NCBI RefSeq assembly: GCF_011745625.1
Contig: NW_027191453.1
Coordinates: 1,178,001 to 1,242,000, forward strand
Source of the DNA: Cladosporium halotolerans
Taxonomy: Eukaryota
DNA: 64,000 nt
Direction of reading: 5' to 3'
The notes below the pieces were generated by a model, which was not told the DNA's origin, ran no database searches, and saw only the letters and a program-made list of their open reading frames with translations. Shown in pieces: positions 1 to 64,000 of the stretch (positions are counted from its first letter, which is position 1; every line of letters starts with the position of its first letter). A program made the translations under genes and the position numbers.

Positions 1-25
1 CTCCCTTCTGGACTCCTTCCAGAAC

Positions 26-2512
26 ATGTCCATCCGCAAATGGGACACATTTCATGTTCCCCACAAGCACGATAAGGATCTCTGGGACCCGCTGGCTTCG
101 TCTGCGAAGAAATCTACCACTCCTTCCATGCCGGCCCGCTCCACTACATGCCCCAAATCTCTCGAGGACTTGCTCATTGGTTCCGGCGAGCGTCGCGCTG
201 CAGACCTCCTCCACAGAGTCGACCAAGCTATTGCGACGCAATCAAAACTCGCTTTGGGCCACGTCCTCAGTGAGCCGGAAGTGCTTCCCGTCCCGGAAGC
301 CGACGACAGTACCTGCACGCAGATGCACGTCCGCCAATCAAGCCGCCACAGCCATTCTTCTGACAGTGGCATTGGATCTAGCGTCGCATCCGAATCTGGC
401 AAGTGTCCCACGACCGGTGAGGCCGCCCTGCATACTCGACCCTCTGTCTATAAGTTCCCCGCTGATCTCGATCCAGATTCTCCAGACCTTTCCTCCGCTT
501 CCAAATCGATGTCCGCCATCTCAGCGGCCACCGAGGAACGCGGTCTGAGCGAGTATGCCAAAGAGCAAATCCACCGCCATATCATTCAGCCGATTCTCCG
601 CGAGCCCTCACTGAAGGAATTCCATCAACTCCTCAAAGACGTCCCACACCGCATCGGCAGCAGGGAGATTAAGAACCTGCGCGACCTCGAGAAGACTCTC
701 ATCTTCTGTGCACCGGTAAGTACCTGCAACCGCTTCACGTCGGATTGCGCATTTACTCATGGTGTTTCTGGCGTAAAGGATTATTCGCGCACACCGAGGA
801 AGTACCTGCACTTCTGCGAACGCACGATCCGAGTTCTGCACACGACGGTCACCACCCTCCACGAGAGCGACCAACGCGCACCGACCGATCGACCGTACAC
901 GCAAGGCTACTTCTTCGACTTGGTTGAGCAGGTGTGTTTTGGCTGCATTGATCCGGCAATCAGCCTCGCCGTTATTGACATCATCGAACAGATCCGCAGA
1001 TACGCCACTATTCTGGCGGCCACCAGAGAAAGGCAGGCCAAGGGCGAAAAGGCTGAAGAGATGGATTACTCACCGTATGGATCGACCCTGAGTGTTGCGA
1101 TCGGTCGCATGGATCTTCCAAGCGCCCATCAATGCTCCTCATCATCTTCCGATGGTTCACACGCTAACCCACAATGCAGGGACGAGACTGTCTCGCTACA
1201 TGGTGGTCTGAGTCACAACGGAAAGCCCGCCGAGCTTGTCCGTCACAAGGATGGCAAGACTATTTCTCTTGCTACAGGTCGCGTTCTTTCCTCGGACGAG
1301 ACGGCTCATTCATCTTCGAAGCGCGCCATGTCGGACGCTGGCCTGGATGATGCCGACGACGACGACGTGCTTCGCTCCATGGCCAGGCGCAAGAAGAACG
1401 CCAAGCCAGAGATACACGAGTGCCCGCAGTGCGAGAAAGAGTTCAAGCGCCCATGCGACCTCACCAAGCACATCAAGACGCACGACAGACCATACAAGTG
1501 CCCTAACACAAAGTGCAAGTATCACGAATATGGCTGGCCGACGGAGAAAGAGTGTGAGCGCCACGTCAACGATAAGCACTCCGCAGCGCCCTCGTTGTAC
1601 CACTGCCTGTTCAAGCCTTGCCCGTATACATCGAAGCGTGAGAGCAACTGCAAGCAGCACATGGAGAAGGCACACGGCTGGGCCTATGTGCGTTCGAAGA
1701 ACAATGGCAAGGGCAAAGCGTCGGAGGTCTCTCGCTTGCCAAAGGGTCCTGTGCCGCCATCTCCCTCATCGATGATGTTGACGCCGCTTACCCCGATCGC
1801 GCCCTCTCCTTCCACTTCGGCACAGTCATGGGCAACTGGATCACGCCACAGCTCCATGGCGCCGCCGCCCGTCCCTAGCCACTACGGCACGCCAGCCTTC
1901 GTGCAGCCATCACCTGACTTCGCTGGACACTTCAACATGGATTTTGACTTCAACAACATGGAAGCATTCCCCATGACCCCAGCTCTCAGCGAGGACCGAC
2001 GTGACTCCGCGAGCACATCCGACTCCGGCATGATGTTCGACAGCAACAGCAACACGTTCGCCGCAAACTTCTCTCCCAACGACTTCTCCTTCGATACGAC
2101 CTACCAATTCGGCGACTTCAATATGCAGCAGCAAACCCCCGACTCCGCCGTCGGCCCAAGCTCCAGCAACATCCACAGCCACCCGTCCATCCACGGCGGC
2201 GTCCTGGTTGGCTCCAACGACCAGCAGGTCTCGCCTCACGCCCAGATGGCAGACCCGACTTTCACGCCGGACCTCTACGACGACATGAACGTCGATGACA
2301 CCTTCGCAAGCGACGTCGACGGCCAGGACTTCACTCTCTTCGGCGCCCGCGCGCCCGCCACTTCCGCCGGCGAGATGTTCCCGTCGCTTGCGGAGGGCTC
2401 GGGGAACTGGGGCAATTTCGCCGGCCAGTATGACAACAGCAAGCAGCAGACGCTGCGCATGCGGACCGAGAGCAGCGTGCTGCACGAGCTGTTCCCGGAG
2501 CTGAACAATTGA
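26..2512 (+). CDS. sltA: C2H2 zinc-finger transcription factor of the SltA/Ace1 family; may be 5'-truncated by the window edge
   Basis: Three C2H2 fingers with family-typical sequence (FKRPCDLTKH..TH, GWPTEKECERHVNDKH, CPYTSKRESNCKQHMEKAHGW.YVRSKNNG) and N-terminal blocks SDSGIGSS and LRDLEKTLIF. The frame is open upstream of ATG 26. Inferred introns are 417-476, 716-778, 932-991 and 1075-1179. Confidence 0.92.
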   Translation: MSIRKWDTFHVPHKHDKDLWDPLASSAKKSTTPSMPARSTTCPKSLEDLLIGSGERRAADLLHRVDQAIATQSKLALGHVLSEPEVLPVPEADDSTCTQMHVRQSSRHSHSSDSGIGSSVASESGKCPTTGEAALHTRPSVYKFPADLDPDSPDLSSASKSMSAISAATEERGLSEYAKEQIHRHIIQPILREPSLKEFHQLLKDVPHRIGSREIKNLRDLEKTLIFCAPVSTCNRFTSDCAFTHGVSGVKDYSRTPRKYLHFCERTIRVLHTTVTTLHESDQRAPTDRPYTQGYFFDLVEQVCFGCIDPAISLAVIDIIEQIRRYATILAATRERQAKGEKAEEMDYSPYGSTLSVAIGRMDLPSAHQCSSSSSDGSHANPQCRDETVSLHGGLSHNGKPAELVRHKDGKTISLATGRVLSSDETAHSSSKRAMSDAGLDDADDDDVLRSMARRKKNAKPEIHECPQCEKEFKRPCDLTKHIKTHDRPYKCPNTKCKYHEYGWPTEKECERHVNDKHSAAPSLYHCLFKPCPYTSKRESNCKQHMEKAHGWAYVRSKNNGKGKASEVSRLPKGPVPPSPSSMMLTPLTPIAPSPSTSAQSWATGSRHSSMAPPPVPSHYGTPAFVQPSPDFAGHFNMDFDFNNMEAFPMTPALSEDRRDSASTSDSGMMFDSNSNTFAANFSPNDFSFDTTYQFGDFNMQQQTPDSAVGPSSSNIHSHPSIHGGVLVGSNDQQVSPHAQMADPTFTPDLYDDMNVDDTFASDVDGQDFTLFGARAPATSAGEMFPSLAEGSGNWGNFAGQYDNSKQQTLRMRTESSVLHELFPELNN

Positions 2513-9476: not shown

Positions 9477-10463
9477 TCTGGTTCATGTAACGTGCTTCTA
9501 TGTTTTGCAAAGAGAAGCGGGCAGTGTGAAGAAGTACCCAAATGACCTTGGATTGCCTTTTGAACTATCTCAGCTCGGGTAATAACCGAGCGAGTAGGTC
9601 ATCCGCTCTGTATGCATCCTTGTACCTGCAAGATAGCGTACATGTGATGCCCCAATAAGCAAGCTATCCGTTGATCCTTCCCAACGCGATTTGGTGCTGT
9701 TTACTAAAATTACGGGTGTGCAGCCGAGAAGAAACCCAGAGCCAGCAGAATGGCAAGCGTTCAAATACGCTCATGTTGCACCTCCGCGTCAATAAAATAC
9801 AGGCAGGCTGAAGTTGAGGGGAACTCCGCTTCCGAAGGTGAACAGCTGCTTCAAAATGCGCCTTTCTGCGCAGGTAACTGTTTCCATGACTCTGCACGTT
9901 AACGCCAGCCAATAGCATACCTTGCAGAGTCATTGCACCCCGCAGAATATTGTTGTCCATGCATGAAATGGAGACGTTGTTCCATTTTGAGGCAGTCTTG
10001 GCGGGCGCTTAAAGACATGAGCGGATTGCACTTCCATTGGCCTACAACACACAAGGCATCACCCAACTTTACGCACATTCCACCGTGCACTGTCTGAAGT
10101 CCTGGAAATCTTGCCAGAGCACAGATCTCTTGTTTCGAGCAAGCGGTTCTGCTGTGTAAATGCAGGCCAATGGGTGGGCATTGTCTGACAGCTAGCCGTT
10201 CGGTGAGGCGCCAAGGTGAGTAAAGAATGACTATACATTCGAGGTCTGGAGCGCATCAGCCAGTATTGCTTCATCACCCATCCTTCTTTTGTTCGTTGCT
10301 TGAGCGCCTGCTTCCTTTCTGTTGTCAGCATCTTTTTTTTGTCACACGGTACACGCAATCCCATCGTCGCTCTTTTCGGCAATTTGACACTGAACACATC
10401 AACGGCGCTGGCGCCTACCTTTCCTTTGCATTCGAATCAAAGTTAATACCATTGATCGCAATA

Positions 10464-13400
10464 ATGTTCAGGCAAAATCAAGGATCACTGGACCGAAAGC
10501 CGTCGAAAGCTGGAAGCAGAAATGGACTGAGAGCTATTGCGTCGAAGCTTAAGCCAGACTTGAAGTTGGCGGTTGATACCGACGTGTCTCGGCATCACGG
10601 ACATATGCCCAAGCAAGTTTTTCCGCGGGACGAGAATTGCTCTCATGGCGTCGAAGACACATGCCCTAGGCCACCTATACCCACTTATTCTGGGAGACAT
10701 CACGCGATAGGACAAAGCCTGAGGAGTCAGCTTGAGAATAGAACCGGGGAGCAAGACGGACGGGCAGGGGCCAATCGAGCCGAATGCAATACAGTTGCCC
10801 ATCGTTTCGGACTACCACCAAGACCAGACATCTATCGCAGCAAGCCAGTGGAGGACAACCTGCATGGTACGAACAGCCTCGCCGCTCCACCACTACACAA
10901 TCGTATTCGGGGTCTGAGACCTTCACCTTTGACGTTGGATATCTCCCCTTCGGATCGAGTTATACCCATCGGTATCTCGATTCCTTCCGCTTCTATCTCA
11001 AATCATACAACAAGCCCACTGGCATCTACACCCGAGCCACATCCTAATGTAGGGAATGGGCACGAGGCAACTACCCCGACCATCGTCATCACTCCGGCAA
11101 GAGAGAGCTTCGATCTGAAACCGCCCACGTATCATTTTCTTGGTGACCACAACCGGCGACCAGCATCAAGTGTATACAGCAGGTACACGAACTGCGCTCC
11201 AAGGACGACACACGATGCCGCTACACCGCCAGTCCCTCCTCTTCCGCTGTTTGCACAGCAACCGCGAAAACAGACAGTCCCGGAATCAAGGGCAACTCTC
11301 TTCGAGGATTTAGGTACTGCACGAAGTCAGCAAGCTACACTCTCGGTTTGCACGGTATTTGAAGAGGATGAGCAAATGCAGCAACCCCAATCTGCCAAGG
11401 ACTTACGCACGCCCAAGATGAGATCCATCAAGCGTCAGTCAACGCTTCCCACGCCTCGACGCAGTCGCGGCTGGTGGAACGTCATCACATCTCCATTCTC
11501 AGCCCGTTCCAACATCCAATTCTGGAGATCCCCGTCAGACGATACCCCGGAACGAAATGCTATCCTTGAAGATGCTGGCACCATGGGTGTCGCCGATGTC
11601 GCGCATGTCTTCCGTGACGCAGCCGATTTGGACGAACCTCTATCAGCTCCAGATACCCAAAAATCTGTCCCTGGTCGATGTGTCTCGAAGTGTTTCCCTA
11701 AACGATCCATTACGGCTCCTGGCGCCTTGGACCCCAGTTGCCATCGAGTCAACATATACCGCATACCCAGCCAGGGTGCGGCGGCCGCATACTATGACGA
11801 GTCGAAACATTTCCCGAGCCTCATCATCGACCCATCCGATGCATCTTCACGTTCGATGTTCGAGGATGACAGTCCGCTCACCGATGTTTGTGCGTGTGAG
11901 AACCATCGGCACATACCTGGCCATGACAAGCAGCATGCGTTGGGCCACGCTGGTGTAACTGAGAACGATAGCAACGGTGCTAGTACCAATGCTGGTGAGG
12001 CTGGGGATGCAGCTCAAGCTCGTACATTGCGAAGTCCTTTCGACGACACACACGCGATCAGAGACCCTGTCGACTCGCCGATCACACCTCCGAGGACTCT
12101 GTTCACGTCACCGACCGCAGATGAGTTGCAATCGCCATCGCCCGCTCAGTCCACTGCGGGGGCCAAAAATCGTGCTGTCACCAATGCGCGTCTTTCCACT
12201 GCATCCTACACCCCAGTTATGGAGGACGCACATGTAGCGACGATGGTAGGTCCGCGTTCCGCTCATGGTGAGCAAAGGGCGGTCTTCATCCCACCAAGTC
12301 GAGCCCCGAGCCCCACTAGCGATAGGGTCGCTCCAGAACCAGCAGTTGCCAACTCTGCCCTGGACCAGGCCGGAGTGATGAGAGAATCGCTCGCATATGA
12401 CAGCACACAGGTTCCCGTCCGGCCTCCGATGCACGAGCGCGAGGGCTCTCGTGGGCTCGGCATCTCCAACAGCGAGCTGGATCTCTTTCCACCACCAAAA
12501 CCGCTCTCTGAGAAACCTCGCTTGGGCACAGACCGCTTTGGTCAGCTTGTCATAGTCAATGGGAAAGACGATCGTCTGGCTCAGCCAGCTCATCGCCACT
12601 TTCTGTGGCCGATCATGGCAGCAGTTGTCTCTCTTCTCCTTCTAATGCTAGTGTTATTGGTGGTCTTTGTGCCTCGAACCCATTCAGACAACCCTGTTCA
12701 GGCTCAATGGCTGAACCTCACTGGCTTTCCGCCTCTACCAACAGGCGTCGCAACCGTCGTCCAACCAGAGAAAAAACGTGACAACAATCAGTGTATTGAC
12801 CCGCCCAAGCTATGGAGCTGCAGTGTCCCTCAGAGTCAACAATCGGACTCTGTACCCGACAGCACAAGCGCTCTACCCGACTTCCGCGTCGAGATTCGCT
12901 TCCGCAACCATACGCTTGAGAACAGCACGGCGCTTGCTCCTGCGACCACTCACTCTCCTTCTGGTCCGGCTTCTGTACAGTCCAGACTCCGTGCTCGCAG
13001 CGCTTGGTCGCAGACTCTCTACTGGCCGTCTCCAGCACCACCCTCTAAATCTGACCAGCTTGCTTTGGGCTCATCCGTTGACGGACTCTCAGAGCCGTAT
13101 AATGGAGAGGAGACGCCTTTTTATCTGTCACTCCTCGATCCCGTCCAGCTAGGGACTATGCGCAAACGTGATGAGACAACGCAAGCCGAGCCATCGAATC
13201 CTTATCCGTATCCCTCGCCGTCGAATGCTTCGTCGACCGCCATTCCAAAGCCGCGTCTCCTCCCCAATGGTCGTCCAGGTCCAGAATTGGCTTACCCTTA
13301 CGCCCGCTCCCAGCCTTTGCGTCTCTACAACCGCGGCCAAGACGACGAGCACTACGGCTTTTCAACGTACTTTGACAAAAGTGTGCTGGTAACAAACTCC

Positions 13401-13802
13401 ACCGCTTCACCTTCCTCCACGACTAATACCACTAACGCTGGGCTCACACTCGCTTCTTCGCCGGAGGATGCAAGCGCGCTCTGCACTTTCACTCAAACGA
13501 GACTCCATGTTCAGATCTGGACTGGACGAGAGGTATCGGCGCTCAACGTTACCGCATCGACTGCGGTCGTAACGGCATCGAACTCATCGGCCAATGTGTT
13601 CGACGCTGCGGGTTCGTTCCCGTATGCTGTAACCATCTCTCTAGATCGCCATAGCGGCCCTGATGTGAAGGGAAAGGGCGTGTTTTGCTGGGCTCTGGAC
13701 GACAGGGGAAAGGTGGTTGGTGATGGAATCAGGCTCTCTCAACCCGTGGGCGATATTGAGAAGGGAGATAATGGGCAGTGTGGGTGTAGATGGGAAAGTT
13801 GA
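10464..13802 (+). CDS. Large conserved hypothetical single-pass membrane protein
   Basis: Uninterrupted ORF of over 1100 codons, with the first ATG at 10464. It has a disordered S/P/T-rich N-half, one hydrophobic helix (IMAAVVSLLLLMLVLLVVFV), then WLNLTGFPPLPTG and a Cys-containing C-terminal domain. Confidence 0.8.
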   Translation: MFRQNQGSLDRKPSKAGSRNGLRAIASKLKPDLKLAVDTDVSRHHGHMPKQVFPRDENCSHGVEDTCPRPPIPTYSGRHHAIGQSLRSQLENRTGEQDGRAGANRAECNTVAHRFGLPPRPDIYRSKPVEDNLHGTNSLAAPPLHNRIRGLRPSPLTLDISPSDRVIPIGISIPSASISNHTTSPLASTPEPHPNVGNGHEATTPTIVITPARESFDLKPPTYHFLGDHNRRPASSVYSRYTNCAPRTTHDAATPPVPPLPLFAQQPRKQTVPESRATLFEDLGTARSQQATLSVCTVFEEDEQMQQPQSAKDLRTPKMRSIKRQSTLPTPRRSRGWWNVITSPFSARSNIQFWRSPSDDTPERNAILEDAGTMGVADVAHVFRDAADLDEPLSAPDTQKSVPGRCVSKCFPKRSITAPGALDPSCHRVNIYRIPSQGAAAAYYDESKHFPSLIIDPSDASSRSMFEDDSPLTDVCACENHRHIPGHDKQHALGHAGVTENDSNGASTNAGEAGDAAQARTLRSPFDDTHAIRDPVDSPITPPRTLFTSPTADELQSPSPAQSTAGAKNRAVTNARLSTASYTPVMEDAHVATMVGPRSAHGEQRAVFIPPSRAPSPTSDRVAPEPAVANSALDQAGVMRESLAYDSTQVPVRPPMHEREGSRGLGISNSELDLFPPPKPLSEKPRLGTDRFGQLVIVNGKDDRLAQPAHRHFLWPIMAAVVSLLLLMLVLLVVFVPRTHSDNPVQAQWLNLTGFPPLPTGVATVVQPEKKRDNNQCIDPPKLWSCSVPQSQQSDSVPDSTSALPDFRVEIRFRNHTLENSTALAPATTHSPSGPASVQSRLRARSAWSQTLYWPSPAPPSKSDQLALGSSVDGLSEPYNGEETPFYLSLLDPVQLGTMRKRDETTQAEPSNPYPYPSPSNASSTAIPKPRLLPNGRPGPELAYPYARSQPLRLYNRGQDDEHYGFSTYFDKSVLVTNSTASPSSTTNTTNAGLTLASSPEDASALCTFTQTRLHVQIWTGREVSALNVTASTAVVTASNSSANVFDAAGSFPYAVTISLDRHSGPDVKGKGVFCWALDDRGKVVGDGIRLSQPVGDIEKGDNGQCGCRWES

Positions 13803-55968: not shown

Positions 55969-56644
55969 GAGTCGACAGCATCCTGCAATGTCTCCTGGGA
56001 TGTTTCGAAGCTTACACGGGTCACTGCTTGACGCAGAGAAGACATTACAAGGCTGGCAACGTGGCGAGCTGGCGAGCTGGTCATCTGACCCAGCTGCGCG
56101 CGGCTGTGAGATAACAATGCATGCTCAAGGCGACACGCCTCGCTTGCGCTTCAGCCCTCCAATCAAATCAGCAATTAGTCCACCACCTACATGCAACAGC
56201 GGCCCAGCTGTAACGCCTTTTTGTGGGCGTGAGTGCTTTATTTCCTGGCCACTGCGGATTGATCGCCCGAAGGCACTGCCGCTGGAGTCAAGGATCAGCG
56301 GGCTCCAGGTCCCGAAGTACAACACACGACACTGCGAGCCTGCGCCTCCCTCTTTGTTATAGACGGTCTACCACTTATTATCGCTTGAGATTGTAGGTCG
56401 GCAAGCTCTATCGATCACAGCATGCGCGTGTGTAACCAAACACGCCGGCATCCACTAGCGCTCGTCGTAAGAGATCGAGCTGAAGACATGAGCTTCCTGC
56501 TCCGGTGCCTCTCTTCACGATCACCGTGACTTGCCCAACTTGGTGTCAGCACACCCATGTAGGCCCGCAGGTTTTCCACCTATTCTTTCCCCGACCCTCT
56601 GGCAGCTCGGTCACACCTCTTCCCGCGTTGCATCACGAGATCAG

Positions 56645-57598
56645 CTGTCTGGAGCTGAAGTCGCCGGCCTGGCGATAGGCGTTGCCGCCCTCGCATCCGC
56701 CTTCACCACTTGCGTCGACTTTCTCGAATACTTCGAGCTGGGCAGGAATTACTTCTACGACTACGACATCGCTTGCACGAAAATCAACCTTCTCCACAAG
56801 CGGCTCAGCATCTGGGGCTGCGACACGCGCATACACCACCTCCACGACGAGCACCCTTCCCTCCGCGATCCGACAAAGCGCGACGTTATCGCCGCCAGTC
56901 TGCTCCGACTCAGCGCCATCCTCTCCAACACTGAGCTACTGCGCCAGAAATACGACCTCCGCCCAGTAACTCACGCGAAGCTCGAATTCCCCCGGCCCTC
57001 CAACCCGCACCGCAAAGGCCACCGCCACTGGCCACTGCACCTCCGCAAGCGCACCACCTGGTCCATCCGCGACAAGGCCAAGTTCGACTCCTTCATCGCC
57101 GACGTCAGCTTCCTCTTGGACAACATGGAGAGGATCACCGGCCACGACTCCGCGCAGGCCAAGGCCATGGAGCTCCTCAAGGAGACCTTCGAAACCCTAG
57201 ACCCCAGCATCAAGGCCCTCCTGCAGAGCGCCGGCGGCAAGGCGCTCCGCGAGCAGGCCCTGGCCGTCCGACCACCGGCCTGGAAGGGCCAGGACGCCGC
57301 GAGGGACGGCGCCGCGACTGACGGGGAGGCCGGCGACTCTTCTAATGAAACGCCAGCCAGCGACGGGCCCGCCAACGAGCTCAGTGGCTTCGTGCAGAAG
57401 AACGACTCGGCCGTCTGGGCCTTCCAGGGCCGCATGGACCCGGCGGGCAAAGTTGTGCTACGCGATCTGACGCAGGTCAACAGTGGGAACACGATTGCGG
57501 GCTTCCAAGGCGCGGGGCCCTCGGATGCTGTGCTGAGGATGCAGCAGGCGGCTTATGAGCATGAGCAGAAGAAGTTTGAGATGATGAATCGGAAGTAG
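56645..57598 (+). CDS. HET-S-like HeLo-domain protein with C-terminal two-repeat, amyloid-like motif; apparent CTG start
   Basis: SGAEVAGLAIGVAALASAFTTCVDFLEYFELGRNY..DY......LLHKRLSIWG and RKRTTWSIRDKAKFDSFIADVSFLLDNMERI align by eye with the HET-S HeLo domain. There is no in-frame ATG before 57125. Confidence 0.8.
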   Translation: MSGAEVAGLAIGVAALASAFTTCVDFLEYFELGRNYFYDYDIACTKINLLHKRLSIWGCDTRIHHLHDEHPSLRDPTKRDVIAASLLRLSAILSNTELLRQKYDLRPVTHAKLEFPRPSNPHRKGHRHWPLHLRKRTTWSIRDKAKFDSFIADVSFLLDNMERITGHDSAQAKAMELLKETFETLDPSIKALLQSAGGKALREQALAVRPPAWKGQDAARDGAATDGEAGDSSNETPASDGPANELSGFVQKNDSAVWAFQGRMDPAGKVVLRDLTQVNSGNTIAGFQGAGPSDAVLRMQQAAYEHEQKKFEMMNRK

Positions 57599-58036
57599 GA
57601 AGGTGGGTGTCTTGGGGGTTGAGGTGGAGAGCGGACAGTACGGCCATTGGAGTTGTGCAGAGCTTGATCTCTCATGCTTGCTTCTGGTGCTGCTTGGTAT
57701 CGGGTCGCGGGTTCTTTCAGACTTTACGAAGGTGACGATTCCACACTACTATTTTGTATTTTTCACGGACTGATTAGCCGTTGCGAAATGGAATGAGTGA
57801 CCCGTTGATGATCGAGAGCTCCGTCGAAACTCTCCAGACCCTCCTGGGACAATTCATGGTCGCGCGAGCGGAGTGCCCGCCGATTCGACGCCAACGACTA
57901 TTGATGAGTATAATCCGGACCGTAATTCAGACAGAGTTGAGGAATCCAACTCAGGCTTTAGATCATCTTTCTGTCGCGTCTTCGTTGGAACCCGAAGCCG
58001 GCGCATAGCTAGATGAGTAGACAAAGGATCAGACGG

Positions 58037-60555
58037 CTATCCCTCTTCGGCACCCCGACCGAGCAGTTCGTCGATCATTTCTGGATCTCCCTTCATCAAG
58101 GCAGTATAGAATGGGGCCAATCCGTTGAAGTCGGCCTTGTTCGGGTCCGCTCCTGCATTCAAGAGCAGCTTCACCACGTCCAGATGGCCGCGGGGATGGC
58201 GCCGTGTACAGCTGTGCCTCCGAACCGGCTGCCCGGGGCGTCGAGGTGCGCGCCTTCAGCTATCAGAAGCTTGACTACGCCTGCTAACCCGAACGAAGAG
58301 GCGTAGTAAAGCGAAGTGGCAAATGGCGGGTACGACTTCCATTGGCCGTCGTCGCCGTTCAGGATCTGAACCCAGGACATGAACGTAGAGCGACTGAGAG
58401 GGCTGAAGAAATCCATCATGCCGGGCTCGATCGCTTCGATCTCTGGACAAGCTCTGGCGTAGTATGGCCATGATCTTGCGGCGTGATCGGCTAACGGATA
58501 GTTCGCAAGGCGGTCTTCATAGTCTTCGGCCGATTGACACGGACCTTTGGCGAACTCCTTGAATCTGAGATAGGCCAGACAAAAACGAGTCAGCTGCAGG
58601 TTGCCGGTATCCTTCGACAAAGCAAAGACACTGGTGCCAGGATTTCCGCGGATCTCATCAGACATAAGGTAATCTTTGACTGATTGGTGTGCAAGACTCA
58701 GGAGGCCTTGGGTAGAAATCGTTACCAAGCTCCCACATAGCGTGAGGACGTCTTGCGGCTCGTTCAGCCGATCTTCCTCGTCCAAGCATTCGCTGGTCAG
58801 ATCTATAGCGATCGCTTCGTGAACTTCCTCTAGCGTCATGGCCGAGATTGAGAACGACAGCCAAAGCAGTGTCCTACGAACAAACTCGATGCACCCGGCC
58901 GGTATTCGGAGGAGGATCCGAGCATATGTTTCGTGAAGGCCGGCCGGTAACGATACCAGAGCCTGCCGGATTTGCTTGCCGGTAGGCATCGAAGATATCG
59001 TATCGAGCTGGCAGTGTGTCCACCTGAACATGCCTGCGGACTGACCACGAAGTGAGTCCAAGATGTCGTCTCTGAGGTTCGGGTTCAGGCGCTGCAGCCT
59101 TTCGGATGCCAATCGGTTCTGAATGTAGAGTTCGATGTCGTGACCCATCTGCTCTCCTAGGTCGTCTAGTCTCAGATGTGAGAACGAATCCAACCGCCTC
59201 TGAATCTCTGGAAGGTCCCTGCTTGTAACAAACAATCGGGATCGAGTCTGGTCCCGAATGGCTGTGAGAACATCGCATAGTCTATTAGTGTCTTCGCACT
59301 CGTCCAAGGCATCGACAATCAGAATCACGTCATATCGCTTTCCAAAGAAAGTGATCGCCTCTTGAAGTACTTTCGGAGTCGGTTTGGTGCTCTGCGGAGT
59401 TGCATGCGCTTCATTGAATGCTTTTTGAAGGCCTTCTGGCACGTCTTCTGATTGTATGCAGCACTGCGCTACAAGGGAGCCCAACGCATCGACAGCATCA
59501 CAAGATCCCTGACGGCGGGAATCGCAGTAGAAATACGCGACAAGGTCGGACTGCGTACAGGCTTTTTGTTGCATAACGTTTATCATTTTGGAGCTGAGTG
59601 ATGGCTGATCAGTAATAGTTACAGAGAAGATAATGATAGGCCTACCTGAGAACCGTTTTTCCAGCGCCGGCTATGCTCATCGATCAGCACGTAATCACTC
59701 CATTAGTACCGTGTATAATACTCACGGCCGCCCGAAAGCCAGAGGCCAGTCAATCTAAAGTCCGTGAATTGCTTGACTTCTTTCGTGGATTGGAGCCAGT
59801 CACCAGTCCCTGGTGTAGAGCAATCGAGCGCACTCTGGTGGCTGTCTTCTGTCTTAGTATGGCAGATCCATTGCAATAGCCTTCGAAAATCGTCATCTGA
59901 TGAACATTAGCAGTCTATTCGTGTGCTTGCTCGCATGAAGTCGCTACCTCTTTGCGCGAGTTGCAAGGTCTCATCTAGAGATTGCACCCTGCATTCTAAT
60001 GATGCGTTCAGAGATTGTATGCTCAGCAGAATCGTCCTGCGCAAGACCTTTAGTTCACAGGCTTTCCGTCTAGTGGGCTCACCATACACACGGCGTGTTC
60101 ACTTACGTTAGATCTGCGGAAAGGGCCAGAGCCAAAGTCGACTTGCACTTCTCGAGCCTCTTTAGGTAGGCTTTCGCGTCGGAGTCCTTCAGCCGCCAGC
60201 CTAGACTTCCGATCAAAGCATATCGTCTCGTCCCAGGCTTCCCAGCGTACTTCGAAGGCAGCAAGAGCTTTCGCAGGGCATGCAGCTCCTGCTCGCAGGC
60301 GATCAGAGGAGAGCTGCCTGATGCACACAGCAGTTTCATGGCATCTCCGCTCTTAGTGGACGTCGCGTCTTGCTCGGCTGCTATCTTTTCCAGCCTTTCC
60401 AGCATAGAGCGGAGATCTATCACCTGGTCCAGGACCCGGCTAAGAGACCACGGACGGCCTTTGCGCGCCGCTCTGAAGTCGTAGCAGATGGTGATGACAT
60501 CGTGCGCTGCTTGCAGGACGGTGATGATGTTCGCGCACAAGCTTAAGGGATCCAT
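58037..60555 (-). pseudogene. NLR-like STAND protein (HeLo-like N-terminus / NACHT / winged helix / ankyrin) with a 1-nt frameshift in the ankyrin region; pseudogene or assembly error
   Basis: MDPLSLCANIITVLQ helical N-domain, PGTGDW, Walker A GGPGAGKT, Walker B LIVDALDEC, GMFRW, LPAGLHETYARIL and LAHQSVKDYL, then ankyrin repeats. Exons are 60555-60107, 60036-59948, 59896-59726, 59670-59646 and 59593-58037. The frame breaks at 58192-58195. Confidence 0.8.
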
Positions 60556-61346: not shown

Positions 61347-64000
61347 TCACAACTCATCGTGCTTCACATCCTCCTGCTCACCAGCGACAGCCTCAGTGGC
61401 CTTCGCCGCGAACTCGCCCATTCTGCTCCTCGCGCTCTCAACCGCATCCGAGATCCTGCTCGCGGCGCTCTCCATAGCGCCCTGCTCGGCCTCACCGTAC
61501 AGCGCGCTGCTGATCGCTTCGCGGGCCGCTTCGACCTGCTCCGCGACGGCGGCGGTGGCGGCTTGCACGGGGCCCGTAGAGGTGCCGAAGAGGGCTTCGG
61601 AGATGGCGCGCGAGGCGGACTCGGCGGCCACGCCGATGTTGCTCTGCGCTGCTTCGGCGTAGCCGGTTTCCGTGCCGTAGATTGCGTCGCTGGCGGAGGA
61701 GTAGGCGGAGGAGGCGGCGGAGGAGGCTTGTTCGTAAGAGCCTGGGGGGAGGTTAGTATTGCTTTGCCAGGGTTGGAGTGTTTGGGGTGATGGTGACTTA
61801 CCCTTGCTGGTGCCGTAGACTTGGGCACTGGCGGCGTCCACGGCGCTCTCGATCTGCTCTGCGACGGAGTCGAGGACAGCCTCGATGGTCGGAGGCGGGG
61901 TCCACACGCTGGATACAACGGAGGAAGCACTCTGGTAAGCATCCTCAGCGTAGCTCGAAGCGGCGGAAGCGAAGTCAGGGGCGCCAGTGTGGTATGCGGA
62001 GTGGAGACGGCTCATGACAGACTCGGTGAACTCAGGCTCGCGTTCGCTGATGAGCTCGGAGAACAGCGACTGGACAGCTTCGTACTGGAAGACGGCGCCC
62101 TCGGTTGCTTGAGCGTACACGGAGGAAGCTGAGCTGTAGACCGCGTCGGTGAAAGGCGGAGGTTGACCGTAGATCTGGTCGCTTGCTTGGGCAATGAGAG
62201 ACTCCCAGTTCTCCTCGGCGCGAGAAGCCATTGACTCCATGAAAGGAGTCTGCGAGCCGAAGATGGCAGTGCTGGCAGCTGAAGCAGCCTGGTCGTAGGC
62301 GGCAGGAGTCGTGCCGTAGATAGCATCGTGCGCATAGGTAGACGCGTACATCATTTGAGAGGAGGCAGCAGCGACGGCGGCTTCGTACTGAGCCTGCGCT
62401 TCCGCGACCACAGACTCAATAGGGGACTTGCTGGTTGCACCAGCTGCCGATCGGGCCTTGTTGGTCAGATCGTCGAGGTTCGCACTCGCAGCAGAGACCG
62501 CAGAGCTGTAGGAAGCCTGTGCGGCGTTGATATAAGCTTGGTAAGCCGGGGTCTGGTAGGCGCTGGTGGCCGAGGCGAACTGGCTCGAAGCGGCAGAGGA
62601 GGCGGCATCGTATTGCGAAGCGATGGCATCGAGGGCCTCCTGAGCGGGAGACTTGGATGTCACGCCCGCGGCCGAAGTTGCGGAAGCGTATAGGTCCTGC
62701 ATTTGAGAGCTGGCAGCAGCGACGGCAGCTTCGTAAGTGCTCTGAGCGGCTGCAACATACGCCTGCCAGCCGGTAGTCGGAGTAGCACCGACGGCGCTGC
62801 TCGCTGCACCAACGAAGGAAGAGTACTGATCGTGGGCGTAGCCAATACCTTGGTAGTAAGCTTGCTGGGCGTTAGCCAGGTACGCCTGGTGAGCGGGAGT
62901 CGGCTCTGCCCCAACAGCAATCTTGGCGCTCTGGTATTGAGCAGAAGCTGCGGACAGTCCTTCGGCGAGACGAGACGCGGCAATGGCGCTGATGCTCTCG
63001 TAAGCGTCTTCGACCTTTTCGAAGACAGGGGGCGTGGTGGGGACAGCTTCGGCGGCAACACTGTACCTTTCGCTTGCGGCGGAGACAGCATCCGAATACG
63101 CAGACTTGGCTGATTGGAACATCTCGCGGTGGATGGGTCTAGCGGTGCCACCCATCTGTTCGTAGATACGAGACTTGGCAGCATCGTAGTGAGACTTCGC
63201 CTGAGCGCTCGCCTCCTGGTAGCGAGAGGCAGCATCAATGGCAAGGCTTTCCGTTACTTGAGCAGCCTGCTCAGCAGCGACAGAGGCAGCAGAGCTAGCG
63301 GAAGAGGCAGCTCCGACGGGTGAAGGAGTACCGTAGATGGCGTACGAGGCGGCCGTCACGGCAGATTGATATTGCTCCTTGATAGCTTGAGTACCTTCGG
63401 CTTGAGCACCGAAGAGAACACTGCTTGCGGCGCTCCTGGCACTCTCGTATTGCTCACTTGCGACAGAGGAAGCGCTCTCGACGCTGCCCTGAGTAGAGGT
63501 AGCAGGCCTGATAGCATCCTGGATGGCCTGGGTGAGACGCGCACCTTGGTCCAGGACGTCGTCAGCCAACTCTCGGAGACGCTCATTGTAATCTTCAGTA
63601 TCCTCGTCAAGGTCATCATCTAAGATGGGGCCACTGGAGGATGGGACAGCCTGAGCCATTGCACCACCCCAGACCTTCGAGGAAGCGGTGGCACTGGCCG
63701 AAGACGCCTCCTCAACAATATCAGAAGCGAAATCAGAGGCCTCGGAAGCAACAGAGGAAGCGCTGGAAGCACCCTCAGTGGCGATGGAAGAAGCACCGCT
63801 ACTGATATCATCCTTTGCTGAGCGCCCGGAAGCAATGACACTGGCTGCCTGGGGGTCAAGGCTGCTCGAAGCATCGGAGACGGCGGAAGAAGCAGACGAG
63901 GCAAGGCTCTCATGTGCAGGCGTCTCTGAGCCAACAACCGCCTCAGACGCGGAGGATGCGGCGTCGGTCAAAGAGTCGGAGAGGGAAGACTCGGTACCAA
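61347..64000 (-). CDS. C-terminal part of a large Ala/Ser-rich ER-retained protein (ends KHDEL; She10-like family suspected); 5' end outside the window
   Basis: Open frame to the window edge, with KVWGGAMAQAVP...PILD, repeated S.A...Y..A..AAS.A.YG units and a C-terminal HDEL. Probable 60-nt intron at 61801-61742 (GTAAGT...ACTAAC...CAG). Confidence 0.82.
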   Translation of the reverse strand, partial: GTESSLSDSLTDAASSASEAVVGSETPAHESLASSASSAVSDASSSLDPQAASVIASGRSAKDDISSGASSIATEGASSASSVASEASDFASDIVEEASSASATASSKVWGGAMAQAVPSSSGPILDDDLDEDTEDYNERLRELADDVLDQGARLTQAIQDAIRPATSTQGSVESASSVASEQYESARSAASSVLFGAQAEGTQAIKEQYQSAVTAASYAIYGTPSPVGAASSASSAASVAAEQAAQVTESLAIDAASRYQEASAQAKSHYDAAKSRIYEQMGGTARPIHREMFQSAKSAYSDAVSAASERYSVAAEAVPTTPPVFEKVEDAYESISAIAASRLAEGLSAASAQYQSAKIAVGAEPTPAHQAYLANAQQAYYQGIGYAHDQYSSFVGAASSAVGATPTTGWQAYVAAAQSTYEAAVAAASSQMQDLYASATSAAGVTSKSPAQEALDAIASQYDAASSAASSQFASATSAYQTPAYQAYINAAQASYSSAVSAASANLDDLTNKARSAAGATSKSPIESVVAEAQAQYEAAVAAASSQMMYASTYAHDAIYGTTPAAYDQAASAASTAIFGSQTPFMESMASRAEENWESLIAQASDQIYGQPPPFTDAVYSSASSVYAQATEGAVFQYEAVQSLFSELISEREPEFTESVMSRLHSAYHTGAPDFASAASSYAEDAYQSASSVVSSVWTPPPTIEAVLDSVAEQIESAVDAASAQVYGTSKGKSPSPQTLQPWQSNTNLPPGSYEQASSAASSAYSSASDAIYGTETGYAEAAQSNIGVAAESASRAISEALFGTSTGPVQAATAAVAEQVEAAREAISSALYGEAEQGAMESAASRISDAVESARSRMGEFAAKATEAVAGEQEDVKHDEL

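Follow-up and report, generated by a model that had tools for sequence, protein, structure and literature searches.

The question raised by this locus is whether the C-terminal tail of a HeLo-domain protein, in which two short repeats follow the death domain and a linker, is an amyloid signalling element of the HET-s type and, if so, whether it belongs to a class that is already described. The window, by which we mean the whole stretch of 64,000 nucleotides that was analysed, comes from Cladosporium halotolerans (contig NW_027191453.1). The features that bear on the question are the following, with residue numbers counting the CTG codon at the beginning of the gene as residue 1.

56645 to 57598, forward strand: HeLo-plus-repeat gene, a single unbroken frame of 317 codons followed by a TAG stop codon (57596-57598).
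56666 to 57220, forward strand: HeLo domain (Pfam PF14479), a putative cell-death domain of the pore-forming type whose N-terminal stretch is hydrophobic.
57227 to 57373, forward strand: variable and probably disordered linker, residues 195-243 (pLDDT below 50, low identity).
57374 to 57436, forward strand: pseudo-repeat R1, residues 244-264, with predicted strands at 244-247, 250-254 and 258-264; its key residues are Q251 (motif position 8), N253 (position 10) and Q261-G262 (positions 18 and 19).
57437 to 57451, forward strand: inter-repeat loop DPAGK (family consensus DPxxG).
57452 to 57517, forward strand: pseudo-repeat R2, residues 270-291, with predicted strands at 270-273, 276-280 and 285-291; its key residues are Q277, N279 and Q288-G289.
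57521 to 57592, forward strand: C-terminal helix, residues 293-316, predicted in the fragment model (where it is 54-77) and in the full-length model.
58037 to 60555, reverse strand: intron-containing NLR gene in convergent orientation to the HeLo gene, encoding a NACHT/NPHP3_N domain, a winged helix and ankyrin repeats.

The HeLo domain matched PF14479 with an E-value of 6.1e-28 and 98.5 bits (the cut-off being the gathering score of 23.2), over positions 1-202 of the 205 in the profile. The R1 core LSGFVQKNDSAVWAFQG (57380-57430) and the R2 core LRDLTQVNSGNTIAGFQG (57458-57511) are placed in one frame with a start-to-start distance of 78 nt, that is 26 codons, so the two-repeat element after the HeLo domain and linker has the coordinates, frame and spacing given in the original prediction. 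The pattern said to be common to both repeats needed a correction: the part Q-x-N...FQG is present, whereas the leucine is placed one residue further away, the actual pattern being L-x4-Q-x-N...FQG and not L-x3. In R2 of the window the arc is one residue longer than in most of the relatives.

A further point concerns the first codon of the gene. The stop-to-stop frame (56492-57598, forward strand) has 368 codons, with the repeats at its end, and frame inspection showed that no ATG lies in frame from the upstream stop (56489-56491) down to position 56645. The codon at 56645-56647 is CTG, while the complete homologues all have Met there and start with MSGAE... or MAE.... An upstream start reached by splicing was considered and dropped, given that all complete homologues begin at the aligned Met. 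Contigs of four public sequencing runs were compared over 56300-57800. The window has C at position 56645, as do the contigs of two runs of one organism; in the contigs of two related organisms, each of which presents 32 differences in 1501 nt, the base is A, which gives ATG. The differences listed comprise 17 in the 345 nt upstream, nine in the 954-nt coding frame and four downstream. Four of the nine coding differences are synonymous and five are non-synonymous, including the one in the start codon; the four other amino-acid changes are all located within the HeLo part. The frame is therefore intact and its canonical start has been lost in the lineage of the window. The CTG is attested in one lineage only, because both runs carrying it share a study and one of them is possibly the source of the window itself. 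One of these two runs has no contig over 57247-57341.

The two repeats are individually short, and R1 and R2 of the window have 7 of 17 aligned residues identical, which could suggest a resemblance due to chance or composition and devoid of function. We consider this very improbable. The R2 HMM gave 4.8-14.5 bits on 11 R1 copies, four of which scored above the maximum of 1100 composition-preserving shuffles (10.8), and the R1 HMM gave 4.4-19.4 bits on 11 R2 copies, with eight above the maximum of the same number of such shuffles (8.0). Moreover, when the 1906 six-frame ORFs of the window were compared with a combined repeat HMM, the HeLo gene was the sole matching ORF (22.9 and 25.2 bits), the next score being 5.4. 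In addition, the repeats are kept in 20 proteins despite the divergence of the linker that flanks them. The similarity of R1 and R2 is more than chance.

A word-indexed search with the protein found nine relatives, those with names being from Cladosporium species and a Teratosphaeriaceae species (Dothideomycetes), and a search with a 13-sequence profile found 31. A metagenome scan gave one locus (L001, 3680 bp), which carries the same HeLo-plus-repeat gene and on which no NLR was found. Two clear copies were detected by the repeat HMM in 20 HeLo proteins, counting those of the window and of L001 and excluding three with weak matches (P0025, P0026 and P0030). A lack of conservation in homologues was one of the points that the original prediction named against itself, and both repeats are found in these 20 proteins. 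Among 11 core relatives, pairwise identity averages 0.54 in the HeLo domain, 0.18 in the linker (196-245), 0.39 in the repeat region and 0.43 at residues 293-304. The last value corresponds to the first turns of the C-terminal helix, which are conserved as DA[LV]LR[LM]QQAAY.

The motif was numbered with the conserved Gly at position 19, as in the HRAM paper (PMC4518210). In the 40 repeats of the 20 proteins, position 8 is always Q, position 10 is N in 39 and position 19 is G in 34, including both repeats of the window; the exceptions are a truncated copy and, within one clade, five r1 copies with Ala in place of the Gly. The invariant Gln and Asn and the Gly turn are thus present, as had been proposed, at the same place in the protein as in the prion-forming domain of HET-s. 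A small residue (A, G or S) fills position 16 in 40/40 repeats, G, D or N is seen at position 12 in 33/40, and at position 17 most residues are aromatic (F in 23). At position 3 there is L, V or I in 29 repeats, the remainder being unaligned, while position 5 is occupied by D/N/G and position 15 by F/I/W/T/G. Position 18 is Q in 28 repeats and L or M in 12. The family signature can be written as hydrophobic-3 ... Q8-x-N10 ... small-16, aromatic-17, Q18 (or L/M), G19.

The r1-to-r2 offset is of 26-28 residues in all 20 proteins, which corresponds to a loop of about 5-7. The residues at position 18 are paired between r1 and r2, with Q/Q in 14 proteins, L/M in six and mixed pairs in none; as the six L/M proteins form one clade, that pairing is probably a single event. 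In-register pairs in which both residues are charged are opposite in 12 of 12 cases and like in none, the 12 pairs not being 12 independent events because the sequences are related. Charged residues are restricted to positions 4-7, 9, 11-14 and 20 and do not occur at 3, 8, 10, 15-19 or 21. This distribution places the invariant Q8 and N10 on the face that is shared with positions 16 and 18. The pairing at position 18 and the charge complementarity fit an in-register stacking of r2 on r1.

The 78-residue tail was modelled with AlphaFold2 (fragment run, 11 sequences, no templates). The model has a pLDDT of 90.6 and a pTM of 0.74, with two rungs, three strands per repeat and a helix after them, and between the two repeats the equivalent strands lie 26-27 residues apart; the fold is no more than predicted, and a confident monomer model is not a demonstration of amyloid behaviour. 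In the full-length model (13 sequences) the helical HeLo part has low confidence, the pLDDT is below 50 at 195-243 and the six strands reach about 80-86. Full-length and fragment models contain the same six strands together with the helix 293-316. A four-copy complex prediction of the tail (score 0.12, mark 0.32) counts neither for nor against the stacking of copies.

In an exhaustive search against 48,161 PDB representatives, the first match of the model was the HET-s fibril 2KJ3 (Z 3.6, rmsd 7.3, 64 residues aligned) and the second was the HELLF fibril 6EKA (Z 3.0, rmsd 5.0, 52/53 aligned), both with a low Z; no other match exceeded a Z of 2.5, and most of these covered the helix-containing C-terminal part of the model. 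In the alignment with 6EKA, residues 6-58 of the model lie on 220-272 of the chain, so that both Gly-19 residues fall on HELLF G237 and G264 in the numbering of the preprint (bioRxiv 10.1101/2020.07.06.188508). Foldseek against the PDB gave weak matches only, the best being again 6EKA (E 0.97, TM 0.35 on the target), and none of its four chains reached a Z of 2 or more when structurally compared again. A look-up of residues 240-305 in the ESM Atlas gave no usable match. In a PDB sequence search with the tail profile, the HET-s and HELLF chains were absent at E up to 10 and two chance matches (E 0.72 and 3.5) were obtained. The HET-s and HELLF structures were included in the training of AlphaFold2, which may be recalling them. 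The model supports a compatibility of the tail with the HET-s fold, which the low Z and the exposure of AlphaFold2 to the fibrils keep short of proof.

The HRAMs (the amyloid motifs related to HET-s) are described as 21-residue pseudo-repeats with an invariant G19, hydrophobic residues at 5, 8, 10, 16 and 18, one of N, Q and H at 3 and, by preference, R/K at 15. They are found in the last ~80 residues of HeLo, HeLo-like or SesA proteins and have a loop of 6-18 aa in 154 of 155 cases (PMC4518210). The family has this architecture, with two pseudo-repeats of ~21 aa in the tail of a HeLo protein and a loop of about 5-7, and it also has the in-register charge complementarity (12 opposite pairs, none like). 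Nevertheless it departs from the hydrophobic rule, given that positions 5, 8 and 10 are polar and only 16 and 18 agree with it, in the fashion of HELLF; position 3, where aligned, is L/V/I, and position 15 is never charged. The HRAM screen of 2015 was limited to proteins with less than 310 residues (PMC4518210) and most members of the HeLo-plus-repeat family exceed this length.

The closest known system is HELLF (Pa_3_9900) from Podospora anserina, which exemplifies the class with Q at position 18. Its repeats end in A-M-Q-G and A-F-Q-G and are separated by a 6-residue loop (PMC4518210). This class is called HRAM4 in the 2015 text (PMC4518210) and HRAM5 in the 2017 review and in the 2020 preprint (bioRxiv 10.1101/2020.07.06.188508). 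Like the tail in the window, HELLF has two 21-residue pseudo-repeats with A-[F/M]-Q-G ends after a HeLo-type death domain, and after r2 a short conserved segment starting with D-A. Its 6-aa loop compares with 5-7 here, both giving an offset of ~27 residues, and the Gly-19 residues superpose by range on 6EKA, which was the best match in Foldseek and the second in the exhaustive search. The hallmarks of the HELLF class are QxFG at the start of the repeat and QG(Q/I) near its end (bioRxiv 10.1101/2020.07.06.188508). QG is present in 28 of the 40 repeats of the family, including both in the window, and QxFG in none of the 40. HELLF also differs in having M/L and T where the family has Q8 and N10, in position 3, which is L/V/I in the family, and in its N-terminal domain, which is HeLo-like, while that of the window protein is HeLo (PF14479).

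The prion-forming domain HET-s(218-289) (HRAM1; 2KJ3, 2RNM; PF11558) is found at the same point of a HeLo protein and shares the pair of pseudo-repeats, an invariant G19 and in-register charge complementarity, in addition to heading the structural search. What sets it apart is N at 3, R/K at 15 and, at 5, 8 and 10, a hydrophobic residue or Thr, together with a loop of 15 residues (offset 36). No match to PF11558 (HET-s_218-289) was obtained in any of 11 family members at E up to 10, and in the 2015 data set this model matched 38 of the 155 HRAM proteins (PMC4518210). The PP/RHIM motifs (HELLP and PNT1; RIP1/RIP3) also show a Gln closely followed by Gly in a short amyloid stretch, at the C-terminus of a death-domain protein. 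They consist, however, of a single pseudo-palindromic copy of G-hydrophobic-Q-hydrophobic-G (GxQxG), whereas the family has [AGS]-aromatic-Q-G in a repeated 21-mer. G, N and Q are abundant in the sigma motif and in PUASM too, both of which are fungal amyloid signalling motifs associated with NLRs. The PUASM pattern FxGxGxQxxGxGxF, which is PNP_UDP-associated, is absent from the aligned repeats, and the effector here is HeLo.

No Pfam family, those related to sigma included, matched the window tail at E up to 1. The Pfam prion-domain models matched none of 11 members at E up to 10, the one match obtained otherwise being a chance one to DUF3591. Moreover, the words QVN and QTN of the family have no occurrence in the table of 155 HRAM proteins (PMC4518210, supplement). 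Of six family words, none occurs in the 9 searchable supplements, out of 11, of the 2022 survey (Wojciechowski 2022), if one unrelated TQVN is set aside.

The original prediction had placed the motif outside the HET-s, PP and sigma motifs and proposed it as a candidate new amyloid signalling motif, whose novelty would disappear with a match to a known HRAM class. The PP, PUASM and Pfam HET-s/sigma signatures are indeed unmatched, but the motif is not wholly unfamiliar, since its end is of the HELLF type. As regards a known class, the QG end, G19 and the short loop are as in HELLF, while QxFG and positions 3, 5, 8, 10 and 15 disagree. What is new is thus the sequence signature, unlike that of the described classes, in what is a variant within the HET-s-related family. 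The repeat length, the offset of 26-28, G19, the A-[F/M]-Q-G end and the fibril neighbours all fit the HRAM/beta-solenoid family, and for this reason the tail is best read as a new sequence variant inside it, nearest to the HELLF class, and not as a new kind of motif. Most likely the signature is not among the classes described so far, a statement that leaves room for an earlier description, as the 2022 supplements were searched in part.

In the HET-s paradigm the receptor is an NLR whose N-terminus carries the motif once (r0), and such a neighbour was found for 98 of the 155 HRAM genes (PMC4518210). The Pfam scan of 107 frames (of ~140 residues or more) in the window identified one NLR, the convergent gene listed above, whose N-terminal 150 residues resemble PF17111 below the cut-off (E 3.9e-5). 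No copy of the repeat motif was found in it, the repeat HMM giving at most 2.9 bits across 58.0-60.7 kb, and it is therefore probably not the cognate receptor. The profile of homologue C-termini that had been suggested was built, but neither the window nor the protein collections yielded an NLR bearing the motif. The 1906 ORFs of the window, which extends 56 kb upstream and 6 kb downstream of the gene, contained no further motif copies. The nine matches of a first tail-profile protein search were all HeLo proteins, and the 11 of a second search were five HeLo proteins and six long repeat proteins (Ig-like, PKD, lectin or with no Pfam domains), with no motif-bearing NLR in either. This absence is weak evidence, because a lone 20-residue r0 copy scores below the reporting thresholds.

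We consider it probable that the C-terminal ~75 residues are a prion-forming domain of the HET-s/HELLF type, unfolded in the soluble protein, which would be templated into a two-rung solenoid, polymerise and activate the HeLo pore-former. In the soluble protein the tail, with its two pseudo-repeats of ~21 residues and a loop of 5-7, would probably be unfolded. Upon templating, R1 and R2 would build a beta-solenoid of two rungs, R2 being stacked in register on R1, and this solenoid would then polymerise as amyloid, with Gln and Asn ladders placed where the other classes have hydrophobic core residues. The fold switch could free the N-terminal hydrophobic helix of the HeLo domain, as in HET-S and HELLF, and the freed helix would insert in the membrane and cause cell death. 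The analysis establishes the motif, its conservation, its register statistics and a predicted fold; the amyloid formation, the role of an NLR encoded elsewhere as the template and the toxicity switch are inferred from the HET-S/NWD2 and HELLF/FNT1 pairs. Counting against this amyloid reading are the polar positions 5, 8 and 10, the low Z, the lack of a motif-bearing NLR and of a Pfam or PDB profile match, and the CTG start.

Alternatively, the repeats could make up a small beta/alpha domain at the C-terminus that is folded constitutively, serving for instance in autoinhibition or as an interaction module, and would not be an amyloid. The compact monomer that AlphaFold2 predicts with high confidence, its 24-residue helix after the strands, the searches that found no templating NLR and the polar residues at 8, 10 and 18, unlike a classical hydrophobic solenoid core, would all suit such a domain. 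However, each HET-s or HELLF monomer adds to its fibril an uncapped solenoid of two rungs, and these two fibrils are the best structural neighbours of the model. The charge and position-18 pairing fit the stacking of rungs, although they would equally fit a monomeric two-rung fold. On balance we regard the folded domain as unlikely. The tail could also be an amyloid element that works without an NLR, in an allelic pair of prion and pore-former like het-s/het-S or with another motif-bearing protein as the trigger. The absence of a motif-bearing NLR from the 56 kb upstream and 6 kb downstream agrees with this, as does the fact that the related strains differ at the start codon and in four amino acids, all in the HeLo part. 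Nevertheless, the adjacent NLR in just 98 of the 155 HRAM cases indicates that clustering is common and not systematic (PMC4518210), and partners at non-adjacent sites are suspected for other amyloid motifs, which makes this explanation an improbable one too.

Returning to the reading of the tail as a templated prion-forming domain, this is compatible with a further explanation, which concerns the allele and not the motif. Because its start codon is CTG, the copy in the window may be translated poorly or not at all. The allele would then be null or weak, with little or no protein in this strain and a motif that is real in the family. The C at 56645 in this lineage, where two related organisms have the A of ATG, the Met at the aligned position in all complete homologues and the absence of an upstream in-frame ATG point in this direction. 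On the other hand, the rest of the frame is intact across its 317 codons, the CTG is known from one lineage only, and among near-cognate codons CUG is the one that filamentous fungi can best use as a start. We take a null or weak allele as a real possibility, though less likely than not.

HET-s and HELLF have very different sequences, one amyloid backbone and separate seeding specificities. A natural class in which polar Gln/Asn ladders take core positions would enlarge the range of sequences known for the HET-s fold, and would be a test case for the determinants of amyloid specificity. We are tempted to suggest, rather tentatively, that the family is a sixth HRAM class. In this class Gln-8/Asn-10 ladders (with Gln-18) would replace the hydrophobic core, the seeding specificity would be its own, the NLR would be distant or missing and the ATG/CTG polymorphism would mark a variation of the presence/absence type in the effector. 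The named members belong to the Dothideomycetes (Cladosporiales and Mycosphaerellales), which include many plant-associated fungi. This class escapes the HRAM and Pfam profiles in current use, so that cell death under amyloid control is probably counted too low in the Dothideomycetes. The absence of a clustered NLR bears, in addition, on the inheritance of effector-receptor pairs.

The relatives in which the repeat HMM found one match or none are P0008, P0009, P0027, P0029, P0031 and P0033-P0040. Several of these bear different, visibly related double repeats, for example Q-T-N...G-I-M-G-N.

Among the relatives found in protein searches with the HeLo gene product, a number (P0025-P0027, P0029-P0031, P0033, P0035, P0036 and P0009) resemble the query only in its N-terminal half and carry different double repeats, an example being Y-x-G-x-Q-T-N...G-I-M-G-N. 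One HeLo relative with such other double repeats comes from the lichen fungus Endocarpon pusillum. The occurrence of these other repeats suggests that the Q-bearing tail motifs of HeLo proteins form a broader, unclassified group.

The HeLo gene has a convergent neighbour, the stop codons of the two genes being about 440 bp apart:

58037-60555 (-), NLR gene with introns

Its product comprises a PF17111-like N-terminal domain, which fell short of the cut-off for that family (E 3.9e-5), followed by NPHP3_N/NACHT, a winged helix and ankyrin repeats. The repeat motif of the HeLo protein is absent from this NLR gene.

When the HeLo gene was aligned with its homologues, the position of their start methionine was found to be occupied by CTG (56645-56647), and no in-frame ATG was found upstream of it. 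The same CTG is present in two sequencing runs, both of one organism. Two related organisms, whose contigs each show 32 differences in 1501 nt, have ATG at this position.

In the public sequencing run X2, made from the organism that is also the probable source of the window, one contig diverges from the window at 57246, ending in 30 loose letters, and the following contig rejoins the window sequence at 57342. This gap lies within the variable linker of the HeLo gene; either a break in the assembly or a polymorphism of the linker may account for it.

Other open frames were also identified in the window:

2-2509 (+), long open frame of 836 residues
10224-13799 (+), long open frame of 1192 residues
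32822-34281 (-), two adjoining frames that encode several zinc knuckles of the CCHC type (PF00098, E 3.8e-38 and 5.8e-19)
61350-63998 (-), open frame that continues past the window end, with 883 residues or more

The frames at 2-2509, 10224-13799 and 61350-63998 gave no Pfam match at E 1e-5. The last of these is very rich in alanine and serine and contains segments that are loosely repeated.
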